Source: an uncultured Verrucomicrobiae bacterium (GTDB taxonomy: Bacteria; Chlamydiota; Chlamydiia; Chlamydiales; Rhabdochlamydiaceae). From it: DNA of 64,000 nucleotides. The position numbers and the translations under genes were made by a program. The stretch spans positions 351,401-415,400 of the forward strand of contig CAWFUG010000008.1 in the NCBI GenBank assembly GCA_963818965.1. Direction: 5' to 3'. The notes beneath the pieces were generated by a model. It was given only the letters and a program-made list of their open reading frames with translations, was not told where the DNA came from and did not search any database. Positions 17,209 to 18,928 of the stretch are shown here, piece after piece. How positions within the stretch are numbered: position 1 is the stretch's first letter; every line of letters begins with the position of its first letter.

Positions 17209-18928
17209 ATGTCTTCAGTTTTCGGTCTCGGCCAGCGTGCAGAACATTCAATCGTTGAATACCAACCAAATTCGCTAGCAGAATTTACCCTAGAAATTCC
17301 CGAGCTCGCTTTAACTATTTTGGAATTTTTGGACTTCCGAGATCATTCCGCTCTGAGGGTCAACCGCTTTCTTTACACTGTTTTGGAGGAGTCGGAATCA
17401 GCCGCTAAAGCATGGGCTTATTTCAAATGCCACTTCCCGTCTTCTATACCCCAGTCGGCCTCGAACTTGGAATTTGGCCGGCGCGAAAGCTCCCCGCGGT
17501 TCGACGATCGCAAATGGGGGTAGTATTAATGCAATACAACTCCCATTTGCGATCGTCGAACCCCGGGGCTTTGGCGCGGCCAAATTCCAAGTTCGAGGCC
17601 GACTGGGGTATAATTCCTGTCGATCCCTATCCCCCTGGAAATACTTTAGTCAGTTACAACGCGCAGCAGAGAATGTGAGAAAAAAAACATTCACGCTCTG
17701 GACATTTACAATACCGAAAAGTGCAACCTCTCTACATCCTATAAAAGACGAACTGCTTCTTTTTAAAAAAGCACACCAGTTTCTACCATCTGAGGAAAAG
17801 ACGTGGGGAGGGTTACACCTTTGGAATTGGCAGACGGGGAAAGAAATTCGATCGATCCCCTGTGCTAATGAAGCAATGAAATGCGTTATAAAAAATGGAG
17901 TGCGGTGCATCGGAACGATAGAAGATGAGTTGATTATTTCCGACATTGAGGGGGAAAAAGAGATCGCTCGCCTCACCAATTCTGGCTACTACGGAGGGGG
18001 CTCTTTTGGTTTGATCGAAGAATATCCCCTCCTTGTAATCCCCCATTCTTACCAATCCACATGTCAAGTGTGGGACTATAAAGCCCAACAATACGTCACA
18101 ACCTCACCAGGGGGTATCGGTACAAGAGTGTGTGCGACCTCAGCGGAAGGTTCTCTTTATATTACGACAGAATTTTTACACGAGAAAAAGATGTATCAAT
18201 GGGATGCAAAAACCGATCAGTGGGAGGCTCTTAAAAAATTACAATCCACTCAAACATTACCGACACCCTACAGCTGTGTCCTTCACAAGGGCCATTTTTT
18301 CTTTGGAAGCCGAAACTGTGCGTATCTCTGTCCCAAGGAAAATTTTGAGACTGTCCCCTCTCATTGGGAAGGCGGTAATTCGATAGGAAGAGTACTCAAC
18401 CCTCTCCCCTTTGGCAATTTCATCTTTTGGCAAATAGTTCAGGATCCCATTGACAAGTGCACTCATATTGGGATCACTGATCTCCGTACGGCACAATCGT
18501 CGATTTTGTTCGAGACAGATGAAGAGACGATGATCACAGCTCTCGCCCTACAAGATGATCACCTTTTTGTTGCGACAGATAGAGTCACATTCCAAAAAGG
18601 GGGTATGGACTCTTCTGAAATACATGAGGCCAAAGTCCACATCTTGGATTTTGGTTTCCCGATCGTTGAAATTCAAGCGGCTGTGCAAGAACAGGATTGG
18701 AAGGGCCTAAGGGATATTTATGAAGAGCTCTCTTCTGAGCGAAAGAATTTGCTCAATAGATGCGTTCCCGATATCACGTTTCAAGAGCTGATCCGAGAAG
18801 CTGAGGATAATCAAGAGGCTTCTGTGCAAACACTCCATACAATTGCTCAGCAACTCCCGGGGAAGTTTGGCGTTGAAAATGCGCAGGCCTTGGATGTGCC
18901 CTTTGATTATGCTTCATACCTTCTTTAA
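17209..18928 (+). CDS. F-box-like / beta-propeller-like protein, interrupted by a palindromic element (split ORFs 17209-17523 and 17474-18928)
   Basis: N-terminal IPELALTILEFLDF..LRVNR; LHLWNW and CQVWDY WD-like motifs; removing element plus one TA gives a single 517-aa frame. Confidence 0.75.
17447..17610. mobile_element. Palindromic MITE, type C (164 bp, TA duplication), interior related to type A
   Basis: 34-bp perfect TIR TACCCCAGTCGGCCTCGAACTTGGAATTTGGCCG; TA at 17445-46 and 17611-12. Confidence 0.92.

Follow-up and report, generated by a model that had tools for sequence, protein, structure and literature searches.

We consider it probable that the one extra base in a C run of the palindromic element at 17445-17612 is an assembly error, and that the element lies in frame within a likely F-box/propeller gene, which would then be a living gene carrying a 55-residue insert like that of the menC-like gene. 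The window is the whole stretch analysed, 64,000 nt in length (G000:C8:351401-415400), from an assembly (G000) of 2.24 Mb in 12 contigs, 87.85% complete and with 47.5% G+C. The element would be the twelfth probable in-frame insertion of a chlamydial RPE-like family, and its slot in known biology is probably that of one more ordinary in-frame insertion like those of RPE. No published description of a chlamydial MITE family with in-frame insertions was found by title or abstract. Through in-frame inserts, accessory F-box-like genes would have a way to gain new effector surfaces. For G000 itself, single +1 breaks are not to be taken as biology.

The element and the gene that it interrupts

The element lies on the plus strand and is non-autonomous, with 168 nt in total, 166 nt inserted, TA at both ends and TATA as each terminus. 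The left terminal arm (17445-17480) pairs with the right arm (17577-17612) at 36 of 36 positions. Inside the arms lies a hairpin (17492-17568; arms 17492-17527 and 17533-17568, 92% complementary) that forms the conserved core of the element family in a 44-copy alignment. The sequence folds as a single nested hairpin (-146.1 kcal/mol, z = -20.5), and none of 200 shuffled sequences was equally stable. Its size and structure are those of a MITE (100-200 nt, terminal inverted repeats, no transposase), and no ORF exceeds the element in length. At gathering score no Rfam family matched the element, the sub-threshold matches being to miRNA-type hairpins only. The TA ends and the lengths fit one duplicated TA, with the empty site known as protein and not as DNA. 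Insertion of 166 nt puts the gene out of frame, so that the 5′ ORF runs into the TAG at 17521-17523, which closes a 104-aa ORF as assembled. The frame break is the C run at 17492-17495, one base longer than in the sister copies.

The 5′ piece of the host gene (17209-17444) has 79 codons, and the 3′ piece (17613-18928) is free of stops over 438 codons; both are on the plus strand. As the initial annotation proposed, removal of the element rejoins one 517-codon gene. The sum of 236 nt, one TA and 1316 nt (517 codons plus stop) is arithmetic only, and the proposal was borne out by an intact homolog, P0005 (519 aa), which runs unbroken across the insertion site with 88% identity to the 5′ piece (P0005 residues 1-79) and 81% to the 3′ piece. 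Since P0005 is continuous there, the element has truly inserted into what is a real gene. Among 2,675 candidates, three proteins matched the 3′ piece, namely the window's own fragment, P0005 (81%) and P0006 (523 aa, 56%). Relatives of the host gene were found in 0 of 131 and 0 of 102 candidate stretches in metagenome and genome contig scans, a clear orthologue in none of 120 family genomes (weak propeller matches in six), and a close paralogue nowhere in the genome. The end of the host gene (18740-18928, about the last 60 residues) resembles P0006 (23 columns versus 3) and the remainder resembles P0005. From this pattern, and from the equal size of the contigs that carry P0005 and P0006, the host gene may have arisen by recombination between two tandem paralogues.

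The F-box label initially given to the gene does not hold at Pfam's curated cut-off: there is no Pfam F-box match in either piece, nor in P0001, P0005 or P0006, and the locus is absent from the genome's 25 matches to PF12937 (E ≤ 0.01) and 39 matches to PF00646 (E ≤ 1). An F-box profile derived from 20 F-box-like matches within the genome itself gave the host gene E values of 1.2 and 4. The 5′ piece encodes a helical N-terminus that is weakly F-box-like over about residues 28-60, and the 3′ piece encodes a predicted beta-propeller followed by a helical tail, with a weak propeller match in Pfam (E = 0.0017) that is below cut-off. By ESM features, 9 of the 10 best named clusters for P0005 are F-box or F-box/WD40 (scores 0.85-0.91), at 144-166 shared features, which is under 170 and so below the firm range; the N-terminus alone scored 0.89. 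HMMER against 1.84 billion representatives recovered the window's own two pieces and 14 weak matches, the three checked being WD40 proteins. The host protein had no sequence match in PDB at E ≤ 1, and AlphaFold on a two-sequence alignment gave a pLDDT of 38, too poor for use. Judged from these sequence comparisons, the host protein is likely a degenerate F-box/propeller protein, and the insertion point would lie after the putative F-box and before the predicted strands (a low-confidence prediction).

The host protein resembles the chlamydial F-box expansions, as outlined in part of the report by Domman et al. (2014, PMC4209131), in its F-box-like helical N-terminus followed by a repeat domain and in its patchy distribution. 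It differs from the families outlined there in having no Pfam F-box match, a repeat that is propeller-like and not LRR, and no close paralogue in the genome. Some chlamydial F-box families have been shown to carry a secretion signal, according to the same part of PMC4209131. The genome has genes for type III secretion and encodes many F-box proteins, with at least 15 F-box matches above cut-off. By likeness to those families, the host protein is a lead as a candidate effector, and the candidate effector of the initial annotation is kept as just that.

The element family and its in-frame insertions

A profile search of the genome found 120 loci, 44 of them full length. Full copies are mostly 167 or 170 nt long and nearly all have TA at both ends; the inserted length is divisible by three in 32 and not in 12 of the 44. 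Among 129 genomes of the bacterial family, which includes Ca. Rhabdochlamydia records, 62 contain element matches, and 23 outside copies, roughly measured, have lengths of 163-170 nt and are not uniformly frame-preserving. Among the named records in which the core motif also occurs are those of a Chlamydiota MAG and of Ca. Rhabdochlamydia sp.; taken with the type III secretion genes and the many F-box proteins, they lead us to see the source as an environmental chlamydia, probably of the Rhabdochlamydiaceae. The 44 full copies, and the sites empty at the protein level in P0005 and in 11 of 11 MenC orthologues, show multi-copy mobility. Small private indels are present in about four other copies of the 44, and two copy pairs each share a +1, which indicates that length variants are inherited. 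What was initially set apart as "type C", a 164-bp class, is an arm variant of this single family. As for a partner transposase, G000 (87.85% complete) has no match to PF13358 (IS630 DDE_3).

The sister copy at 60112-60278 (plus strand, 167 nt) lies in frame in a menC-like gene (59975-61066, plus strand; MenC_N and enolase C-terminal domains) and adds 55 aa, and exactly these 55 residues are missing from all 11 orthologues. Another 167-nt sister copy, at 52925-53091 on the minus strand, is without a supported host gene. The 17445-17612 and menC copies share their orientation and their phase, each starting on the third base of its host codon, and are identical at 114 of 167 nucleotides (68%). 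When the former is translated in two pieces with frames unchanged, it matches the MenC insert gap-free at 5 of 16 and 21 of 39 residues (26 of 55). The homology of the two peptides in the same frame, as initially claimed, is therefore present, and it follows from DNA homology alone, because one shared DNA family is read in one frame. Peptide-level conservation was rejected as a sign of function: differences at codon positions 1, 2 and 3 number 167, 204 and 221 over 18 copies, with no third-position excess. We likewise rejected, as proof of selection, the open phase (4 of 6 frames are open through the 17445-17612 copy) and the loss of the stop codon that the sister copy has (most 167-nt copies are open in that frame anyway).

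In-frame read-through, defined by at least 30 open codons upstream and at least 50 downstream, was found for 11 of the 44 copies, 7 of the 11 in the orientation and phase of 17445-17612. The hosts are MenC, EPSP synthase (aroA), an RlmD-like methyltransferase, RecC, PepF, a sulfate permease (SulP), a cupin, an F-box-like/LRR protein and three proteins without a Pfam match; the family thus has the in-frame fusions in unrelated conserved genes that mark RPE-type elements. The dicodon screen for intragenic copies missed atypical genes, the 17209-18928 gene included, and its counts are lower bounds. The F-box-like/LRR host, an 830-aa gene, contains a 167-nt copy in frame (G000:C1:218176-218342), and its tandem neighbour has no insert. 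The sulfate-permease ORF with an in-frame insert (G000:C9:99614-101472) stops after 396 aa, and a 315-aa ORF in another frame overlaps it, which may mark another assembly break downstream of the element. A divergent 169-nt copy (G000:C2:97350-97518) splits a histidine-phosphatase gene, with a stop within the first 14 codons, and is a plain disruptive insertion.

The extra base in the C run

The element is one base longer than the menC copy (168 versus 167 nt) and the extra base falls in the C run at 17492-17495, both as first described. The initial annotation would have taken a run of four Cs in all copies as the sign of a plain disruptive insertion. Four Cs are found in 1 of 44 aligned full copies in the genome, and in 0 of 39 outside matches (38 in 37 genome stretches and one in a metagenome) from a motif scan that allowed either length and may omit records of the source genome. 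Copies in general therefore do not have four Cs, an outcome in favour of the initial annotation. The closest sister (G000:C1:272839-273005) is 167 nt long and 97% identical, with four substitutions and one gap, and the 17445-17612 copy has one singleton substitution relative to the family. Because the extra base is private and the closest sister has 167 nt, the base arose at this locus, either in the cell or in the assembler. These same observations make it highly improbable that a donor copy with the extra base already in it disrupted the gene at the moment of insertion, as the inheritance of length variants in two copy pairs and the known disruption of the histidine-phosphatase gene would allow. 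Among read-derived contigs, one 240-nt piece is identical to 18035-18274 and none crosses the element.

Of the two alternatives offered initially, a sequencing indel and a real slippage, which are rightly chosen, the indel is the one that the evidence favours. We aligned 1,214 ORFs to G000 from 918 kb of two relatives, G001 and G014, in 59 stretches that make up about 8% of G001 and about 40% of G014. At 45% identity and 70% cover, this gave 432 conserved-gene matches with 137,050 aligned aa in total. Frame changes appeared in 22 rows. Six were dropped (three antisense duplicates, one break of G001's own and two with 65-180-nt gaps), and 13 of the remaining 16 are +1 modulo 3 (binomial P = 0.02). 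The broken genes include rpsA, three times (C11; frames 2, 3, 1, 2), the only dnaE (C1), prfB (C9), uvrB (C12) and aroE (C11), and three named type III secretion genes are also frameshifted. The prfB break is far from the programmed shift at the N-terminus of that gene. These five genes, rpsA, dnaE, prfB, uvrB and aroE, cannot all be dead in a living cell. In the reverse test, nine rows were found in 414 matches. Two of them fell in the 348 matches of G014 (99% complete), one being G000's own rpsA break, which leaves at most one break of G014's own; G001, from the same genus, had seven rows in 66 matches, two of them clean frameshifts.

Contig C4 is a 21.6-kb inverted self-duplicate at 99.5% with 48 gap openings and also repeats the end of C12, and the start of C11 (G000:C11:1-26000) folds back on itself at 79-86% identity; both self-duplicates are likely read fold-back artefacts. 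Duplicated stretches between contigs have 15 gaps in 8 kb, mostly of 1 nt. The fold-back duplicates and gap-rich overlaps point to unpolished long-read sequence. Homopolymer indel errors are documented for such data, those in G/C runs being mostly deletions in the part of PMC8574707 that covers them, from which the +1 bias of G000 differs. Homopolymer context was rejected as a discriminator, a run of at least three being nearby in 4 of 10 housekeeping breaks only. It is probable that any single-base break in G000 is an assembly error.

An assembly error at the C run is favoured because essential genes of the same assembly carry frameshifts that are mostly +1, and because the host gene has no second lesion in its 517 codons (about 1,550 nt) and shows no excess in rate, the lineage-specific changes being 4 versus 3, and 10 versus 15 (P = 0.42), in a comparison with P0005 for which P0006 served as outgroup. 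It is also favoured because 7 of the 11 in-frame copies use the orientation and phase of 17445-17612, and because the copy in the 830-aa F-box-like/LRR gene is a precedent. The element lies on a TA of the host gene in the family's commonest in-frame phase; if RUP is a guide, an IS630-type transposase that targets TA would have mobilised it in trans. The insert would be tolerated as a loop, placed after the helical N-terminus and ahead of the predicted propeller, and the extra C presumably added by the assembly would mask the 55-residue in-frame insert.

Several results weigh against an error. The measured rate, about one frameshift per 26 kb of conserved coding sequence, gives just 0.65% for each 166 nt and 6.7% for a gene as long as the host, none of the 20 conserved genes in window positions 1-40,500 is broken, and no read or contig spans the element. 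The same-genus G001 also shows breaks, 12 of the 44 copies have inserted lengths not divisible by three, and one copy plainly disrupts the histidine-phosphatase gene. The private small indels in about four other copies are far above the 0.3 errors expected over 44, so that real slippage, or hairpin-enriched error, occurs in the family. It is thus possible, though we hold it to be the less probable course, that the element landed in frame and the C run later slipped by one base in the cell, leaving a dispensable accessory gene as a young pseudogene with at most a 104-aa stub. The private indels, the error-free neighbouring conserved genes and the patchiness of the host gene, with no clear orthologue in 120 family genomes, speak for such a slippage. 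So do the birth-and-death evolution with pseudogenes described for chlamydial F-box families in part of PMC4209131 and the transposon-driven gene inactivation described for Rhabdochlamydia in part of PMC9723776. However, a real slippage would have to be very recent, as there is no other lesion or rate excess in about 1,550 nt; the copy has its single singleton substitution only, and the +1 sign fits the error bias of the assembly (13 of 16). For the weighing, we set a chance of about 0.5% for a +1 error in a constrained gene against about 1% for a lone +1 mutation in a relaxed gene, taking about one third as the prior for a relaxed gene and allowing somewhat for hairpin errors, which comes near 60:35 as an uncomputed estimate.

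A break that is both real and used is very unlikely. Here the C run at the hairpin base would be a slippage-prone switch between a full-length host-targeting F-box/propeller protein with the 55-residue insert and the 104-aa stub, an idea to which we give very little credence, or ribosomal frameshifting would occur at the hairpin foot, or the 3′ piece would be translated from a new start. Both frames are open for about 165 nt around the run, where ORF 17209-17523 overlaps ORF 17474-18928 (the second frame has 29 open codons upstream), the hairpin is very stable (-146 kcal/mol), and there is an in-frame TTG at 17474, with the database protein P0004 called from a later GTG. Against this use of the break, however, the four-C state occurs in no other copy among the 44 and the 39, the TTG is buried in the stem, and promoter-like sites in 17000-18100 number 0 against 1.2 expected. 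Phase variation is not known from runs as short as four bases. A real, switchable break would mean that a frame-preserving MITE sets up contingency loci in the genes that it enters, which nothing here supports.

Known repeat families and other repeats in the window

The Rickettsia palindromic elements (RPE; Ogata et al. 2000, 2002) are palindromes that lie between genes and are also fused in frame in conserved genes, as summarized in parts of PMC10969869 and PMC2229807. From its sequence features, the present family appears to work like RPE; the likeness rests on behaviour in a chlamydial host, so the wording is "works like" and not "is". The features shared with RPE as summarized there are a short palindrome without transposase, a long stem-loop, intergenic as well as in-frame positions in conserved genes, an obligate intracellular host, and in-frame copies that add a conserved peptide. 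In contrast to RPE in those summaries, the host is chlamydial, the length is 167-170 nt and not 105-146 (about 150) nt, the terminal arms are near-perfect over 36 nt where 12 bp are listed for RPE, and TA is present at both ends in nearly all copies and not in all RPEs.

The element also resembles RUP of Streptococcus pneumoniae (partner IS630-Spn1), which the relevant part of PMC2229807 describes as TA-terminated, 100-200 nt long, bounded by terminal inverted repeats and non-autonomous. The Correia/NEMIS, ERIC and YPAL/RU-2 (168 bp, 56 aa) MITEs treated in that part of PMC2229807 resemble it likewise, and YPAL and ERIC share with it open frames that fuse with genes. RUP, in the same account, is without an open frame and intergenic, unlike the present element. 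A further difference from the RUP/IS630-Spn1 pair is that the IS630 DDE_3 transposase was not found in the 88%-complete assembly.

A 47-nt mini-copy of the element, consisting of the terminal arms only (45 nt inserted), is present at 42630-42676 inside the ORF 41908-44055, which has a queuosine salvage domain as its C-terminal part. Palindromic repeats of a second family, which share the core CACAGAGA..GGAAACCACAGAGA, are found at gene ends (3885-3954, 13486-13572, 30649-30752, 49770-49859, 53097-53135 and 57648-57712). Further long hairpins lie at 15911-16087, 28363-28451 and 30850-30986; the first of these is inside a YhcG-like ORF (15738-16256) whose Pfam match is split into two stretches, and is perhaps another insertion. 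The tandem ORFs 47220-49535 and 49883-52195 encode 770-aa paralogues that are 80-98% alike and give weak matches to F-box-like and propeller domains. Six 54-nt (18-residue) repeats occupy 10206-10652 in the ORF 10176-11066, which is without a Pfam match.
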